Source of the DNA: Chloroflexota bacterium
Lineage (GTDB): Bacteria; Chloroflexota; Limnocylindria; Limnocylindrales; CSP1-4
Length of the DNA: 64,000 nucleotides
Direction: 5' to 3'
Assembly (NCBI GenBank): GCA_019637815.1
Contig: JAHBUZ010000006.1
Location: 128,522-192,521 of the forward strand
Position 1 is the first letter of the stretch. Each line of letters begins with the position of its first letter. A program made the position numbers and the translations under genes. Under the pieces are notes generated by a model. The model was not told the DNA's origin. It ran no database searches and saw nothing but the letters and a program-made list of their open reading frames with translations. Shown here piece by piece: positions 9,051 to 37,098 of this stretch.

Positions 9051-10415
9051 TCAGGGCCCGGCGAGCAGCTCCACCGCGGTCGCCAGCGCAGGGTCCGTGG
9101 CCTCGCTCGTCTGATGCCAGAGGGTCGGGACGTGCACGTCCGGGACGATGCCCGTCACATCCCAGACACCCAGGTCCGCACCGACCGGCTGGAACGCGCC
9201 CGTCGCAAGCATCACCATCCAGCCGTGCGGCAGATCCAGCGGCACGAGGATCTCCATGTTGGCGCGCGTGGATGCCCCGACGAGGGTCGCGCGATCCACG
9301 TGCCCCAGCACGCCCGCCAGGATCTCGCCGAACGAGTTCGTCTGCGGGCCGATGAGCGCCACGAGCGGCACCGTCTGGGAGCCACCGATGTCGACGGGCT
9401 CCAGGAGCAGTGGCTCGCGCCAGTCCCGGCCCAGCCAGGCGCCCGGCTCGCCCACCGCGAACAGGTCGAGGATCGGCAACAGGACCTCGGCCCAGCCACC
9501 GTCGTTCACGCGACCATCGAGGATGAGGCCCGTGAGCGGACCGTCGGCGGTCATCGCCTCCAGCGCCTCGCGGACCTGGTCGTCGACCGTGCCATCGCCG
9601 AGCGTGGGCAGGAACAGGTAGCCGATGCGCGTACCGGGCACCACGCAGGAGTCGATCGGGAACCCACCGGACACCTCGCGTCGCACGATCGTGATGTCGC
9701 GGGCCGCCTCGCCAGGACTGCGGATCGTCAGCGTCACGGGCGTCCCGACCGGGCCGCGGACCAGGCTCTGGCCGACCTCGTCCAGGACCGGTCCTCCGTC
9801 CACGGCGAGGATGGCATCCCGCGGACGTAGGCCCGCCCCTGCGGCAGGGCCGCCCGGGAGCACCGCGACCACCACCTCGTGGTCAGCCGACCCGAGTGGG
9901 ATGGACCAGAGGCCGATCCCGACGTAGTCCACCGCACCCGCGAGCAGGCCCATGGCCTCGGCGACGTCGTCGGGACCCAGGACATACGAGTGGTCATCGT
10001 CCAGCTGGTGGACGGCCCAGCCGAGAAGTGCCCGGAACGCTGCCTCGTCCAGACCGCTGGCGATGTGGGCGCGCGCCGCCGCGGTCACTGCGTCCCAGCT
10101 GGCTCCTGTCCGCTCCGGATGGAGGTAGTGGTCACGGACGGCCTGCGCGAGCGCGTCCAGGATCGCTCCCTGACGCTCGACCACCGCCGTGTCCGGCCCA
10201 CTCGATGACGGCGGCGGCAGGGTCGGTGCTGGGCGGCGAAGGGCCGCCTCCGCGACATCCGGTGGTGTCCAGGCGACCGCCGAGCGACCCGGGACGAAGT
10301 CGCAGGCCCGCACGGACGACGCACCACCATCGACCATGGGCGCAGGCGGGGGAGTCATGGTGACGGCCCCGACGACCACCAGGAGACCGCCCAGGAGCGC
10401 AGTGTGACCAGCCAT
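9051..10415 (-). CDS. S41 family peptidase (C-terminal processing peptidase) with a PDZ domain
   Basis: N-terminal signal/anchor LLGGLLVVVGAV. PDZ-like VLPGGPAAGAGLRPRDAILAVDG. S41 core LILDGRVNDGGW ... SFGEILAG. Confidence 0.7.
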   Translation of the reverse strand: MAGHTALLGGLLVVVGAVTMTPPPAPMVDGGASSVRACDFVPGRSAVAWTPPDVAEAALRRPAPTLPPPSSSGPDTAVVERQGAILDALAQAVRDHYLHPERTGASWDAVTAAARAHIASGLDEAAFRALLGWAVHQLDDDHSYVLGPDDVAEAMGLLAGAVDYVGIGLWSIPLGSADHEVVVAVLPGGPAAGAGLRPRDAILAVDGGPVLDEVGQSLVRGPVGTPVTLTIRSPGEAARDITIVRREVSGGFPIDSCVVPGTRIGYLFLPTLGDGTVDDQVREALEAMTADGPLTGLILDGRVNDGGWAEVLLPILDLFAVGEPGAWLGRDWREPLLLEPVDIGGSQTVPLVALIGPQTNSFGEILAGVLGHVDRATLVGASTRANMEILVPLDLPHGWMVMLATGAFQPVGADLGVWDVTGIVPDVHVPTLWHQTSEATDPALATAVELLAGP

Positions 10416-31599: not shown

Positions 31600-32697
31600 C
31601 TACTTCGTGTAGGCGAGCGTGAACGCGCCGTCAGTGGGCTTGCCGGCCACGGTGAAGCAGCGGACCACCACCTGCTGCGGCTTCTTGTTGCCGATACGGA
31701 TCGAGCCGACCTGGCATTCCTGCTTGCCGCTCCCGTACGGGGTCACGAGCGCCGCGCCCCCCGTGGGCATGCCCGGCAGCGTGACCCGGTACACACCCTT
31801 GGACAGCCGCTTGATGGTCGCTCGCTTCCCGTTGGTCGCCCAGGCGGTCGCCTTGGCGGGCTTGTAGCTCCTGGCGGTCGGCCGATCGGCGAGGAGGTAC
31901 GCGGACGGGCCACCGCCGAAGCCCTCGGGTCCCACGTTGCGCATGAACAGCACGTGGTGGAAGTCTCGTATCGGGGTACCGGTCGCGGTCCGGCACTGGA
32001 CCCGGACGACCAGGTCGGGGGCACCTGACCAGGACACGACCCGGCAGGTCGCGCCCAGGTGCGAGGTGACCTGGACGGTGCCCGCGCCCTTCGGGGTGCC
32101 CACGCCCGGGATGACGCCGTGGTCCCGCGTGTTGGCCAGCTCCCGCACCGTGATCGTGCCACCCGCCGATGAGTACTGGAACTCGGGGTTGGGGCCGTCA
32201 GGGTCCGCGACGTAGTAGTAGGCAAGCCGCCGGGGTCCGGCATGCTCACCTGAGCCGCCCGTGAACGTGACCACGAATCGCGAGTCCGCCTTCTTGTCCG
32301 CGAATGTGTAGCACCGGACGAGCACCCGGGCCGGGACCGCCTCCCAGTCCCGCCAGCCAAGCGTGCAGCGTCGTGGCTGACTGCCCATCGGCGTGATCTG
32401 GACGATGCTGGTCGCTGAGAGGCCCGGCAGCGCGACCCAGTAGACGCCCTTGGACGACCGATCGACCCAGTTCAGGCCACCGGTGGAGTTGCCTCGGTCG
32501 CGCGGGAAGGGCGTGTGATCCTGCTCGGGGTACCGCACGACGACCCAGCCGGACGTCGAGCCTGCGCCTCCGGCCGGTCGAGCCGGTGGATCGGTTGGCT
32601 CCGCTGCGTGCGCCTGCGTCGCACCCACGGTGGAGGCCACGAGCGCGAGGATCACGGCGACCAAGGGCAGGCGACGCCGCCGGGCAGGTGTTCTCAT
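31600..32697 (-). CDS. secreted hypothetical protein, paralog 1 of 3 (three ~100-aa two-Cys modules)
   Basis: Signal peptide MRTPARRRRLPLVAVILALVASTVGATQAHA|AEP. Three internal modules share NS.GG...R...G.Y.V.LPG...VQVT..G...C.V..W...V.V.C...D..F. C-terminus LAYTK. Confidence 0.8.
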   Translation of the reverse strand: MRTPARRRRLPLVAVILALVASTVGATQAHAAEPTDPPARPAGGAGSTSGWVVVRYPEQDHTPFPRDRGNSTGGLNWVDRSSKGVYWVALPGLSATSIVQITPMGSQPRRCTLGWRDWEAVPARVLVRCYTFADKKADSRFVVTFTGGSGEHAGPRRLAYYYVADPDGPNPEFQYSSAGGTITVRELANTRDHGVIPGVGTPKGAGTVQVTSHLGATCRVVSWSGAPDLVVRVQCRTATGTPIRDFHHVLFMRNVGPEGFGGGPSAYLLADRPTARSYKPAKATAWATNGKRATIKRLSKGVYRVTLPGMPTGGAALVTPYGSGKQECQVGSIRIGNKKPQQVVVRCFTVAGKPTDGAFTLAYTK

Positions 32698-32742
32698 CGG
32701 CGGAGCCTAGCAGCCGGCCGCAAGCGTCGAGCCGGCTGGCGA

Positions 32743-33837
32743 CTACTTCGTGTAGGCGAGCAGGAACTTCGCGTCGGCCGGCTTGCCGGTCTTGGAGAAG
32801 CAGCGGACCTCGATCCGCTGGGGTGTCGTCTTCGTGCGGATCGACCCGATCTGGCAGTCCTCGGTACCCGTGCCATACGGGGTCACGAGCGCTGCGCCAC
32901 CCTTCGGCATCCCTGGCAACGTCACCCGATACACGCCCTTGGACGCCCGCTTGATCGTCGCCTGCTTGCCGTTCGATGACCAGGCCGTCGCCTTGGCGGG
33001 GTGGTAGCTCGTCGTCCTCGTGGGCTTGCTCGCGAAGAGATAGGCCGACGGTCCGCTGCCGTACCCAGCGATGCCCAGCTTGCGCACGAACAGGAGGTTG
33101 TGTTCGGTGTCCAGCCGCGCGCCGGTGTCGTCCCGGCACAGGACGTCCACCGTCTGGGACCCGGCCCCCTTCGACCACCCGGCGATCCGGCAGGAGCCCG
33201 CATCGTAGCCGTACCAGGTCATCTGGAAGGTGCCCACCACGTCCGGATGCCCCTGGTTCGGGATCGTCGCCCGATACCGGCCTGTGCTCCGGTGCTCGAG
33301 CGTGATCTTGCCCGGCTTCGACGAGAACTGGTAGTCGAGCCACGGGGTCGAATCCGCGTCAGTCACGTCGGCCCAGTAGTAGGCGAGCCGGCCGGGGAGC
33401 CCGCCCGTCTCCGGGGGTCGCCCGGTCATGACGACGATGAACGGCGTGTCCCGCAGGTCGCCGTCATGGTCGTAGCACCGGACCTCGAGCTCCGCCCCGG
33501 GGCCCCAGCTGGTGGAGACGCACCGCCGGAGCTTGGAGCCCATGGCCGAGACCTGGACGGTGGCGGTGTACGGGATCCCCGGCAGCTGCACGTCCCAGAT
33601 GCCCCTGTCCACTCGCTGCACCGTGTTGATGCCGCCCGTGGAGTTGCCGCGGTCCCGCGACGCCGGCACGTATTCGTCCGTCCGGCTGGGCTCACGGACC
33701 ACCACCCACGCGGACCGTGAGTGGAGCACGGGGTCGGACGCGCTCGCGGCCGCCGGCAGCATGGCGGAGACCGCGAACGCGGCCAGCGACACCACGGCGA
33801 TGAGGGACCTGGATCGGGAGCGGACAGGGCCGGTCAT
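32743..33837 (-). CDS. secreted hypothetical protein, paralog 2 of 3
   Basis: Signal peptide ...LPAAASA|SDP. Same three-module layout. The C-terminal module is nearly identical to that of paralog 3. Confidence 0.8.
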   Translation of the reverse strand: MTGPVRSRSRSLIAVVSLAAFAVSAMLPAAASASDPVLHSRSAWVVVREPSRTDEYVPASRDRGNSTGGINTVQRVDRGIWDVQLPGIPYTATVQVSAMGSKLRRCVSTSWGPGAELEVRCYDHDGDLRDTPFIVVMTGRPPETGGLPGRLAYYWADVTDADSTPWLDYQFSSKPGKITLEHRSTGRYRATIPNQGHPDVVGTFQMTWYGYDAGSCRIAGWSKGAGSQTVDVLCRDDTGARLDTEHNLLFVRKLGIAGYGSGPSAYLFASKPTRTTSYHPAKATAWSSNGKQATIKRASKGVYRVTLPGMPKGGAALVTPYGTGTEDCQIGSIRTKTTPQRIEVRCFSKTGKPADAKFLLAYTK

Positions 33838-33923
33838 CCGGAGAGCCTACCGACCCGATGCAAGCGTGAGCGGGCGGGACGGCCGCGCCGGCTCGAGACG
33901 CGAGCCGGATCCCAGCGCCCGCC

Positions 33924-35015
33924 CTACTTCGTATACGCGAGCAGGAACTTCGCGTTCGCCGGCTTGCCGGTCTTGGAGAAGCAGCGCACGACCACCTGCT
34001 GGGGCGTCTTGTCCGTCCGGATCGACCCGATCTGGCAGTCCTCCGTACCGGTGCCATACGGGGTCACGAGCGCTGCGCCACCCTTCGGCATCCCGGGGAG
34101 CGTCACCCGATACACGCCCTTGGACGACCGCTTGATCGTCGCCTGCTTGCCGTTCGACGCCCAGGCCGTCGCCTTGGCGGGCTTGTAGCTCGTGGTCCTC
34201 GTGGGCTTGCTCGCGAAGAGATAGGCGGACGGTCCACCGCCGTACCCCTCGATGCCCAGGTTGCGCAGGAACAGCAGGTCGTGCTGGGTGTCGGCGAGCG
34301 CACCGGCCGGCCTGCGGCAGTGGATGTCCACGGTCTGGGCACCGGACCCTTTCGACCACCCCGCGATGCGGCAGTAGCCAGCCCTGTCGTACGGGCTCAC
34401 CTGGAACGTGCCCACCACCGTCGCGTGCCCCTGCTTCGGGATCGTGGCCCGGTACTTGCCGGTCCCCCGGTGGTCGAGCGTGATCTCGCCGGGCTTCGAC
34501 GAGTACTGGTAGGTGTCGAGTGGGGTCGAGTCCGCAGACTCGACGTCGGCCCAGTAGTAGGCGAGTCGACCGGGGAGGCTGCCGCTGGACGCGGGAGCCT
34601 CCGTCAAGGTGACCACGAACGGCGCGTCCTTCAACTGGCCCGCATAGTCGAAGCACTGCACGTACGTTTCATCGATTCCCCAGCTCGAGGGCACGCACCG
34701 ACGCGGCTTGGAGCCCATGGCCGACGCCTGGACCTGATCAAGATCGCCCACGCCCGGCATCATGATGCGCCACGTGCCCTTCCAGGTGCGCTCGACCTTG
34801 TTCCTGCCGCCCGTGGAGTTGCCACGGTCACGCGCGGCCGGTGCGTACTCCCCCGTTCGACCCGGGTCCCGGACCACGACCCACGCCGACACCGAGTGCG
34901 TGGGTGCCTGCCCGCCAGCCATCGCGGACGCCGGGAGGATGGCCGTTGCTGCGAGCACGGCCAGTGACACCACGGCGGCAAGGGACCTGGGTCGGGAGCG
35001 GGCAGGTCTGGTCAT
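33924..35015 (-). CDS. secreted hypothetical protein, paralog 3 of 3
   Basis: Signal peptide ...ILPASAMA|GGQ. Same three-module layout. C-terminus KFLLAYTK. Confidence 0.8.
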   Translation of the reverse strand: MTRPARSRPRSLAAVVSLAVLAATAILPASAMAGGQAPTHSVSAWVVVRDPGRTGEYAPAARDRGNSTGGRNKVERTWKGTWRIMMPGVGDLDQVQASAMGSKPRRCVPSSWGIDETYVQCFDYAGQLKDAPFVVTLTEAPASSGSLPGRLAYYWADVESADSTPLDTYQYSSKPGEITLDHRGTGKYRATIPKQGHATVVGTFQVSPYDRAGYCRIAGWSKGSGAQTVDIHCRRPAGALADTQHDLLFLRNLGIEGYGGGPSAYLFASKPTRTTSYKPAKATAWASNGKQATIKRSSKGVYRVTLPGMPKGGAALVTPYGTGTEDCQIGSIRTDKTPQQVVVRCFSKTGKPANAKFLLAYTK

Positions 35016-35143
35016 CGGTCGAGCCTAGCGACCCGATGCAAGCGGTCGCAGGCCGGACAGGTCGCAGGCCGGACGCAAGCCCGGGCGCCGGACGACGGAC
35101 GAGCGATACGTGCCCGCGGGCGGGCCAGCCGCCGAGGCGGAGG

Positions 35144-35575
35144 TCAGTCGAGCGGGGACTCGTGGAGGATGTGGCCTCGGCGCGGCTCCGGCAGGTCGAC
35201 CAGCCGAAGCCCGGGCACCCGCTCGAACTCAGCCCGGTTCAGGGTCGCGACGGCGTACCCATGCGCAAGCGCGGTCGATGCGATCCACAGGTCGTGGGGC
35301 CCGATGAGGCTCCCGCGCGACTCGAGGTGTGACCAGATCCTGGCGTGTACCCGCGCGACCGCGGTGGTGATGGGGACCGGCTTCATCCCGGCGAGGATCC
35401 CCTCGACGATGGCCTCGCGTCTCGCCCGGTGCTCGGTGGTCGCTCGATGGACGCCGTGGAGCAGCTCACTGACGGTGATCACGCTGATCGCGACACCCGG
35501 ACGCTCGATGAGCCCGGTGATCCGGCCGCGTTGCTCTCGACCGATGAGCAGGCTGGTGTCGATCAGGACTCCCAC
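35144..35575 (-). CDS. vapC: PIN-domain toxin VapC
   Basis: MGVLIDTSLLI..., VITVSELLHG and ...ATLNRAEFERV. Overlaps the upstream antitoxin gene by 13 nt. Confidence 0.8.
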   Translation of the reverse strand: MGVLIDTSLLIGREQRGRITGLIERPGVAISVITVSELLHGVHRATTEHRARREAIVEGILAGMKPVPITTAVARVHARIWSHLESRGSLIGPHDLWIASTALAHGYAVATLNRAEFERVPGLRLVDLPEPRRGHILHESPLD

Positions 35576-35820: not shown

Positions 35821-35979
35821 GTCGGCCACGATATCAGATGTATCTGATCCATCTGATCCCAGGGCCGTGGCCGCCGCTGGGTGCGTCGAGGTTCCCGGGC
35901 GCACTACCATCCTCGTGGTCGATGGCTGTGGCGCGCGTGGTCGGCGCCGCACCCGGCCACGAGGCTCGAGGAGGCGATC

Positions 35980-37098
35980 GTGAGGACATCCAGGCAGCGG
36001 GTGGCGTCGGCACTGGTGATGGTCCTGGCCGGGACGGCGCTGTCCATCGCGCCGGTGGCTGCCGAGGGCCGCATCTCGGCGACGGGGTCGATGTCGGTCG
36101 GTCGCTACGGTCACACCGCCACCCTCCTGCCGGACGGCCGGGTGCTGGTCATCGGCGGGTTCTCGGTCGATGAGCAGTCGGCCTCCGTCCACGATACCGC
36201 CGAGATCTGGGATCCGGTGACCGGCGTCTTCGCTGCGACGGGTCCGCTGGCGACCGGTCGCTACCGTCATACCGCCACCCTCCTGCCCGACGGCAGCGTG
36301 CTCGTGGTCGGGGGCGGCGATGGCGCTGGCCGGCCCGTCGCCGCCGAGCGTTGGGACCCGGTGACGGGTGCCTTCACGACGACCGGCTCGCTGCTCGTCG
36401 GCCGCGCCGACCATCGAGCGATCCTCCTGCCGGACGGCCGGGTGCTGGTCATCGGCGGAGGTGATGGCGAGGGCCCCATCGCCTCCGCCGAGCTCTGGGA
36501 TCCCGCGTCCGCTGCGTTCGAGCCGACAGGCTCGATGGGCCACGCCCGCTACGACTTCACCGCGACCCTCCTGGCCGATGGCAGCGTGCTGGTCGTCGGG
36601 GGCCGCGACAGCTCGGACACCCTGGTGCCCACCGCCACTGCTGAGCGCTGGGACGCCACCAGCGGCACCTTTGCCGAGACGGGTCCGATCACGACCGCCC
36701 GCTTCGGTCACACCGCGACCCTCCTGCCTGACGGCAGCGTGCTGGTCGTCGGGGGCCGCTACGACGAGGTCTTCGCGACCGCCGAACGCTGGGACCCCAC
36801 CACCGGGATCTTCGCCGAGGCGGGCTCCATGGCCGATGCTCGCTTCTATCACGCGGCGACCTCCCTCCTCGACGGACGCGTGCTGGTGGTCGGCGGGTGG
36901 AGCGCCGGCGCCTCGGCCGCCTCGGCCGAGCTGTGGGACCCGGTCACTGGCACCTTCGCCGCGGCCGGGTCGATGGCGGGCGGCCGCAACGGTCTCACCG
37001 CGACCCTCCTGCCGGATGGTCGTGTGCTCCTGGTCGGGGGCCGCCAGTCCAACCCCACGCTCGCCGTGGCGGAGATCTGGGAGCCCGCAGCCGACTGA
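35980..37098 (+). CDS. secreted Kelch-repeat protein (seven-bladed beta-propeller)
   Basis: GTG at 35980 preceded by GAGGAGG. Signal peptide VASALVMVLAGTALSIAPVAAEG. Seven repeats of G(S/P)(M/L)...R..HTATLLPDG.VLV.GG...AE.WDP..G.F. Confidence 0.8.
   Translation: MRTSRQRVASALVMVLAGTALSIAPVAAEGRISATGSMSVGRYGHTATLLPDGRVLVIGGFSVDEQSASVHDTAEIWDPVTGVFAATGPLATGRYRHTATLLPDGSVLVVGGGDGAGRPVAAERWDPVTGAFTTTGSLLVGRADHRAILLPDGRVLVIGGGDGEGPIASAELWDPASAAFEPTGSMGHARYDFTATLLADGSVLVVGGRDSSDTLVPTATAERWDATSGTFAETGPITTARFGHTATLLPDGSVLVVGGRYDEVFATAERWDPTTGIFAEAGSMADARFYHAATSLLDGRVLVVGGWSAGASAASAELWDPVTGTFAAAGSMAGGRNGLTATLLPDGRVLLVGGRQSNPTLAVAEIWEPAAD

Follow-up and report, generated by a model that had tools for sequence, protein, structure and literature searches.

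Gene conversion limited to one segment, combined with uneven purifying selection, is well described among tandem exported paralogs in bacteria. Concerted evolution of the 3′ segment of the Helicobacter pylori genes babA and babB was reportedly described by Pride and Blaser in 2002. Both in this pair and in homA/homB, intragenomic gene conversion keeps the 3′ segments similar, whereas the 5′ and middle parts diverge; structural constraint is assumed to fall on the homogenised segment (PMC2795765). In the tandem lpl lipoprotein cluster of Staphylococcus aureus, a conserved stretch within each open reading frame (ORF) is a site of homologous recombination, and the resulting genes are mosaic (Tsuru and Kobayashi 2008, PMC2568036). 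Here, we analyse an array of three tandem genes, termed P1, P2 and P3, in a 64 000-nucleotide stretch of a Chloroflexota genome (assembly GCA_019637815.1, contig JAHBUZ010000006.1, positions 128 522 to 192 521 of the forward strand; hereafter ‘the window’). The array resembles bab and hom in that the C-terminal (3′) segment of paralogs appears homogenised and the rest diverged, and it resembles lpl in that tandem paralogs of exported proteins share a conserved block that seems to recombine. The explanation we favour, and regard as fairly probable, is an exchange of module 3, the last of three protein modules, between P2 and P3 at the DNA level, on top of stronger selection on this module throughout the protein family.

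P1, P2 and P3 are co-oriented ORFs with all frames intact, and they can be aligned end to end. Each of the three proteins comprises three homologous modules of ~105 amino acids apiece, with an inter-module identity of 25–30% and an invariant cysteine pair in every module. All three begin with a Sec-type signal peptide, judged by eye from a basic n-region, a hydrophobic core and an AxA site. The array holds the only copies of the family in its genome (4.07 Mb, 61 contigs, 87% complete). Judged by its YbeY protein, the uncultured organism belongs to the Chloroflexota and is probably Limnocylindrales-like, its relatives being labelled Limnocylindrales. The genes and their parts are as follows:

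33924–35015, minus strand: P3, 363 amino acids, signal peptide and three modules; 71% amino acid identity to P2
32743–33837, minus strand: P2, 364 amino acids, signal peptide and three modules; ORF and AlphaFold2 model
31600–32697, minus strand: P1, 365 amino acids, the most diverged copy; ~50% amino acid identity to P2 and P3
33927–34238, minus strand: module 3 of P3, probably homogenised with module 3 of P2 (90% nucleotide identity, silent-site divergence (dS) 0.20, same-codon fraction 0.88)
32746–33057, minus strand: module 3 of P2, probably homogenised with module 3 of P3
31603–31914, minus strand: module 3 of P1, protein conserved (70–75% amino acid identity to P2 and P3), silent sites saturated
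34239–34895, minus strand: modules 1 and 2 of P3, diverged part
33058–33720, minus strand: modules 1 and 2 of P2, diverged part
31915–32559, minus strand: modules 1 and 2 of P1, diverged part

An earlier reading of the window from its letters alone (the original prediction) had claimed that the three paralogs share a polar gradient of conservation, with module 3 the most alike. Computed at the module-3 coordinates used there, the gradient is real. P2 and P3 are identical at 90.2% of nucleotides in module 3 (296/328) versus 72.2% in the rest of the gene; the corresponding values are 74.0% versus 59.4% for P1–P2 and 77.8% versus 59.8% for P1–P3. The peptide stretches quoted for module 3 are likewise present in the sequences. 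Calling the module-3 DNA of P2 and P3 ‘nearly identical’ was an overstatement at 90% identity. Nor is identity uniform along the genes: in sliding windows of 30 codons, P2–P3 nucleotide identity climbs from 0.58–0.81 in modules 1 and 2 to 0.85–0.96 in module 3, and third-position identity from 0.42–0.73 to 0.72–0.93. The longest exact run shared by P2 and P3 measures 44 bp in module 3 and at most 23 bp elsewhere in the gene, and that of the P1 pairs in modules 1 and 2 measures 11–12 bp. The same contrast between modules 1 and 2 and module 3 is seen in the proteins, with 129/206 versus 101/113 identical residues for P2–P3 (Fisher p = 1e-7), p = 3.5e-5 for P1–P2 and p = 1e-9 for P1–P3. Yet the gradient is not strictly polar in P2–P3, since the start of the gene is also closer than module 1 (80% nucleotide identity over the first 30 codons and 77% over 35 nt of promoter-like sequence ahead of them). 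Beyond the stop codons similarity ends, the ~50% identity found downstream being that expected by chance at the given G+C content. Within module 1, P2–P3 differences are somewhat enriched outside the predicted strands (identity 0.48 versus 0.63), which is at most a weak hint that modules 1 and 2 vary in specificity.

Silent sites separate the two causes that the original prediction had left side by side, i.e. concerted evolution and stronger purifying selection. Between P2 and P3, dS calculated by the NG86 method is 0.74 (0.51–1.16) in module 1, 0.49 (0.33–0.75) in module 2 and 0.20 (0.11–0.31) in module 3, a difference that is significant under permutation of codon columns (p = 0.001). The LWL85 method gives 0.78, 0.51 and 0.22, and a codon-frequency maximum-likelihood (ML) estimate 2.9, 2.3 and 0.44; on ~110 codons the ML values are unstable, as in module 3 of P1–P2. 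The same trend is obtained with a method-free measure, namely how often identical, degenerate residues are encoded by the same codon; this fraction amounts to 0.64, 0.73 and 0.88 in modules 1, 2 and 3, against 0.53 expected by chance (Fisher p = 0.0011). Nonsynonymous divergence (dN) falls as well, from 0.35 and 0.27 to 0.07, and the ratio of dN to dS (omega) does not differ significantly between modules (0.51 versus 0.34, p = 0.12; ~0.1 in all three by ML). Because dS falls while omega stays flat, the gradient in P2–P3 is mainly one of age rather than of constraint, and an age difference along a pair of genes is what DNA-level homogenisation predicts. A max-chi-square scan of silent codons places a breakpoint after alignment column 250, near the border of modules 2 and 3 (p = 0.0095). 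The G+C content of third codon positions (GC3) is equal across modules and thus bears no signature of GC-biased conversion. Taken together, a gene-conversion-like event in module 3 of P2–P3 is supported by these observations.

In the comparisons that involve P1, the gradient has a different origin. Here, dS is flat at 0.64–0.84 over all modules, the silent sites are saturated and the same-codon fraction is 0.62 in every module, i.e. near chance. It is dN that drops, from 0.5–0.7 in modules 1 and 2 to 0.15–0.21 in module 3, and omega drops with it, from 0.78–0.84 to 0.24–0.30 (p = 0.002). Stronger purifying selection on module 3 fits this pattern and explains how P1 has kept 70–75% amino acid identity to P2 and P3 in this module despite randomised silent sites. 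Thus both suggested causes apply, each to its own comparison: conversion-like loss of silent divergence in P2–P3, selection in the P1 pairs. Given the saturation of their silent sites, an old conversion event in the P1 pairs would no longer be visible. The P1 pairs are also informative in another respect: codon identity in module 3 is not raised there, so that neither stronger codon bias nor an overlapping antisense element explains the low silent divergence in P2–P3. Overlapping ORFs in other frames are numerous, as is usual at high G+C content (~70% for the array DNA, with a GC3 of 0.88–0.93). Antisense ORFs over module 3 were considered as a silent-site constraint and discarded for the lack of extra codon identity in the P1 pairs.

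To place these rates in context, we turned to the wider family, for which there is no Pfam or NCBIfam model and to which a profile search assigned 3111 cluster representatives at E ≤ 0.001 (1494 at E ≤ 1e-30). Its members occur in forms of 3, 6 and 9 modules. Proteins of ~720 and of 1000–1300 amino acids contain two to five matches to the three-module profile and thus correspond to 6-module, 9-module or longer forms, and one member was found outside the Chloroflexota, in a metagenome-assembled genome (MAG) of the Bradymonadia. Among 32 other family members, module 3 evolves most slowly, with a mean Kimura distance of 1.07 versus 1.56 in module 1 and 1.78 in module 2, and a per-column conservation profile also ranks it as the most conserved of the three. 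When distances within the array are divided by those to outgroups, values of 0.44, 0.23 and 0.11 are obtained for P2–P3 and of 0.68, 0.77 and 0.36 for P1 against P2 or P3 (modules 1, 2 and 3, respectively). After this normalisation module 3 of the array is still 2–4 times closer than modules 1 and 2, a comparison weakened by saturation of the outgroup distances. Such closeness would fit homogenisation and, in the case of P1, would fit lineage-specific constraint equally well. Module 3 of the three paralogs is monophyletic with respect to all other family members (support 98).

The nearest assembly with a long syntenic contig, GCA_964650135.1, provides a clock for these events, its flanking genes being 80–85% identical at the DNA level. 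This sister genome has the same gene order (yqeY, a HD-7TM gene, ybeY, DinB_2 ... Kelch, pth, mfd) and lacks the array. In its place, a module-3 remnant of ~250 bp (positions 9713–9997 of locus L045 of this assembly, minus strand) abuts the Kelch gene on the strand that the array occupies; the remnant is 74–78% identical to module 3 of P1–P3, carries frameshifts and has lost its stop codon. Its presence at the syntenic site means that the common ancestor already had a family gene here. Between the two genomes, five orthologues from the flanks show an NG86 dS of 0.44, a same-codon fraction of 0.72 and an ML dS of 0.92. Measured against them, module 3 of P2 and P3 is younger than the split (same-codon 87/99 versus 901/1248, p = 0.0004), and modules 1 and 2 are not (p = 0.46) or are even older by ML (2.9 versus 0.92). 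By this clock, the module-3 copies thus coalesce after the split from the sister genome and the N-terminal modules do not. With module ages that differ in this way relative to the flanking genes, one duplication date cannot fit all three modules.

These results can be accommodated in a model with two layers. One gene of a large, unannotated family encoding secreted proteins was probably duplicated in tandem long ago, giving P1, P2 and P3. The first layer is purifying selection, which acts more strongly on module 3 than on modules 1 and 2 across the family. As the second layer, module-3 DNA would have passed between P2 and P3 once their lineage had separated from its nearest sequenced sister. 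The likely mechanism, we infer, is RecA-type recombination between direct repeats, be it gene conversion or an unequal sister exchange. Such a tract would have its inner end near the module 2/3 boundary and its outer end at the stop codon, beyond which it cannot pass because homology ends there. Since module 3 of P2 and P3 has diverged by ~10% after the exchange, such an event would be rare and old rather than part of an ongoing homogenisation. The two layers may also feed into each other: by keeping module 3 alike, with exact runs of up to 44 bp, selection would maintain a substrate for recombination, which modules 1 and 2, with runs of no more than 23 bp, would not offer.

Several results weigh against this model. 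Of the tests for a conversion tract, the max-chi-square scan returned a breakpoint, as described above, whereas a longest-run test in the manner of Sawyer and GENECONV was marginal (p = 0.043 for all sites, 0.057 for silent sites), with three sequences to work on. The absolute values of dS depend strongly on the method at a GC3 of ~0.9. The module trees are topologically congruent in that each of the three joins P2 and P3 as sisters (support 93 for module 1 and 99 for module 2). For module 2, P1 is placed apart from them, yet the approximately unbiased (AU) test does not reject monophyly of P1, P2 and P3 (p = 0.63; the constrained tree is even better), and a mosaic origin of P1 was therefore dropped. 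Family tandem pairs in two other genomes, GCA_046328165.1 and a second one designated G022, have flat profiles; polar homogenisation is thus not a habit of the family, and the homogenisation of module 3 has to be regarded as an event in the P1–P3 array. Finally, no intact orthologous array was found in 40 relatives, 48 genomes of the genus, 5.8 billion proteins, metagenome contigs of the Joint Genome Institute (JGI) scanned for peptide patterns, or genome contigs. In these searches the closest homologue reached at most 40% identity, barring one near-identical contig of P1, and a search of the JGI contigs with the conserved module-3 DNA pattern returned 13 matches, all of them unrelated.

Could selection alone, with module 3 more constrained in all three copies and no exchange of DNA, account for the gradient? 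Such a scenario draws on the slow evolution of module 3 family-wide, on the pure dN effect with flat dS between P1 and the other two copies, on similarity that stops exactly at the stop codon and on the marginal outcome of the run-length test. What it leaves unexplained is the silent divergence between P2 and P3, for which three estimators give a 2.5–6.6-fold reduction in module 3, matched by codon identity. Moreover, omega does not differ significantly between modules in this pair, GC3 is equal across them, the P1 pairs have no extra codon identity in module 3, and after normalisation for rate this module still appears 2–4 times ‘younger’. We therefore consider selection without exchange unlikely. 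An artefact of assembly is far less credible still. The genome is indeed a metagenome bin of 61 contigs and 87% completeness, in which a chimeric or collapsed assembly might make module-3 segments alike, and an independent contig carrying P1 ends at the P2/P1 junction, a kind of break for which repeats are often responsible. That same contig, however, was assembled from another sequencing run (a Logan contig of SRR12908357) and matches P1 at 1097 of 1098 nt, all three reading frames are intact, and the module-3 copies of P2 and P3 differ at 32 of 328 positions, so that nothing has been collapsed.

A reversed polarity deserves more thought, although we judge it, too, to be improbable. P2 and P3 would then stem from a recent duplication of the whole gene (dS ~0.2), after which their N-terminal modules were replaced or scrambled, be it by recombination with diverged alleles of other strains or with lost paralogs, or by a targeted mutator. 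The same dS gradient is predicted in this case, related genomes vary in what they carry at this locus between conserved genes, and the family, patchily distributed over the genus (18/48 genomes), is multi-copy there. Replacement from outside is difficult to reconcile with P2 and P3 remaining sisters in modules 1 and 2, and no closer donor was found in the 5.8 billion proteins or the JGI metagenome contigs. Divergence is also graded, with module 1 above module 2 and module 2 above module 3, rather than confined to one sharp block. As for a mutator, no reverse transcriptase was found: a search of the whole genome (87% complete) returned no RVT_1 match, making a diversity-generating retroelement (DGR) unlikely and leading us to set aside DGR-type or other hypermutation. 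The variable part is, in addition, ~650 bp long and N-terminal, unlike the variable regions of DGRs. On balance, reversed polarity is less likely than homogenisation of module 3 between P2 and P3.

The comparison with the described systems can now be refined. In H. pylori, the evidence for homogenisation is within-strain clustering over many strains, whereas for P1–P3 it is silent-site divergence in one pair, without orthologues. The H. pylori genes are dispersed and encode outer-membrane adhesins with a beta-barrel anchor; those of the array are tandem and encode soluble-looking secreted proteins in a phylum of the monoderm type. Unlike in bab and hom, the event in P2–P3 appears to be old, with 10% divergence since, and not recurrent. 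With respect to lpl, the conserved block of P1–P3 is the 3′ module. A recombining unit that spans two adjacent ORFs, as in lpl, does not apply: identity past the stop codons is ~50%, the intergenic regions are unequal in length (86 versus 45 nt), and the 5′ end of P1 is only 54% identical to that of P2.

Upstream of all three genes lies a shared motif of 29 nt, composed of CGCTTGC, ~10 nt, TAGGCT and 6 nt, after which the ATG follows:

35016–35044, minus strand: upstream motif of P3 (CGCTTGC..TAGGCT, 6 nt, ATG)
33838–33866, minus strand: upstream motif of P2; over 35 nt, 77% identical to that of P3
32698–32726, minus strand: upstream motif of P1; over 35 nt, 69% identical to both other copies

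None of the three genes is preceded by a Shine–Dalgarno sequence. A scan with the sigma-70 consensus did not pick up the motif; judging from its position and sequence, TAGGCT could possibly be the −10 element of a leaderless transcript. A consensus scan of the array found no intergenic terminators, and the intergenic hairpins considered for this role do not exceed shuffled sequence in stability (z −0.45 to −0.77).

The neighbours of the array are ybeY, a DinB_2 gene, a PIN toxin, a Kelch protein, pth and mfd. P3 is flanked directly by the PIN-domain toxin gene (35144–35575, minus strand) and the Kelch-repeat gene (35881–37098, plus strand). This is a context of housekeeping genes with a PIN toxin and a predicted secreted Kelch propeller, and it contains no prophage. 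The contents of the slot between ybeY/DinB_2 and pth–mfd differ in every related contig examined. In the sister genome GCA_964650135.1, the Kelch gene is kept (77% amino acid identity), the PIN pair and the array are not, and the slot between DinB_2 and Kelch also holds an unrelated ORF of 526 amino acids without a Pfam match. The 16 searched genomes of the same order that belong to a different family all lack the protein family; genomes of this kind measure 1.0–1.4 Mb at ~90% completeness, compared with 2–4.4 Mb in the genus of the window. In the Chloroflexota MAG GCA_046328165.1, at least two separate tandem pairs of family genes lie within 10 kb (locus L028, 1–1448 and 8001–10372). In P0005 (405 amino acids), a family member of this MAG, the last strands of module 3 are replaced by an aberrant, basic C-terminal tail, which a frameshift has probably produced.

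What the proteins do can be approached through their predicted structure. Sequence searches returned no match for P1, P2 or P3 in Pfam, NCBIfam or the PDB. AlphaFold2 models P2 as an all-beta protein with eight strands per module (pLDDT, the predicted local distance difference test, 89; predicted template-modelling score (pTM) 0.86), and module 3 of P2 modelled alone reaches a pLDDT of 94. The whole-chain pTM suggests a fixed arrangement of the modules. The predicted fold of a single module is nearest to the phiAB6 tailspike (5jsd_A: TMq 0.61, probability 1.0, 24% identity, E = 0.05) and is also near the R2 pyocin fibre (6ct8). The whole model matches models of cyanophage tail fibres (E = 1e-8 to 3e-5), with an E of 1.2e-8 for the Syn5 tail fibre, and a PHROG tail-fibre family gives a weak match (E = 0.0097). 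Matches of the whole model to single-chain C1q and adiponectin trimers are weak and not significant (TMq 0.31–0.34, E 0.15–0.9); they may hint at a pseudo-trimeric packing of the three modules.

The likeness to phage receptor-binding domains of tail fibres and tailspikes (5jsd, Syn5, ACG-2014f, 6ct8) thus lies in the predicted beta-sandwich fold. In contrast to phage tail fibres, P1–P3 have no significant sequence-family membership and no shaft or virion-attachment domain; rather, they consist of three modules in one chain behind a signal peptide and are encoded in a chromosomal housekeeping context. The tail-fibre-like fold, the signal peptide and the cysteine pairs together suggest that P1–P3 are extracellular binding proteins, lectin- or adhesin-like, by analogy at the level of the fold and not by family membership. 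Their ligand would probably be a glycan or a cell-surface structure. It had also been proposed that module 3 mediates a common interaction while modules 1 and 2 vary in specificity. Our data are compatible with such a division of labour, the sole observation that speaks for it being the higher conservation of module 3 than of the other two modules across the family. A bolder and rather speculative idea, which we think unlikely to hold in full, is that the family represents a cellular, secreted, single-chain pseudo-trimer of the tail-fibre tip, whose arrays would slowly diversify ligand specificity, with a constant module 3 anchoring exchange and modules 1 and 2 exploring surfaces.

With regard to process, the array is one more example of a known phenomenon, contributed by a poorly studied phylum and an unannotated family. 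It also offers a worked case in which two causes of a conservation gradient can be told apart within a single locus, namely a difference in age through conversion in P2–P3 and a difference in constraint through selection in the P1 pairs. The more interesting by-product may be the family itself, which, with its predicted tail-fibre-like fold, may merit a domain model and an experimental structure. If the pseudo-trimer idea were true, tandem arrays such as P1–P3 would constitute a system for the diversification of ligand specificity.

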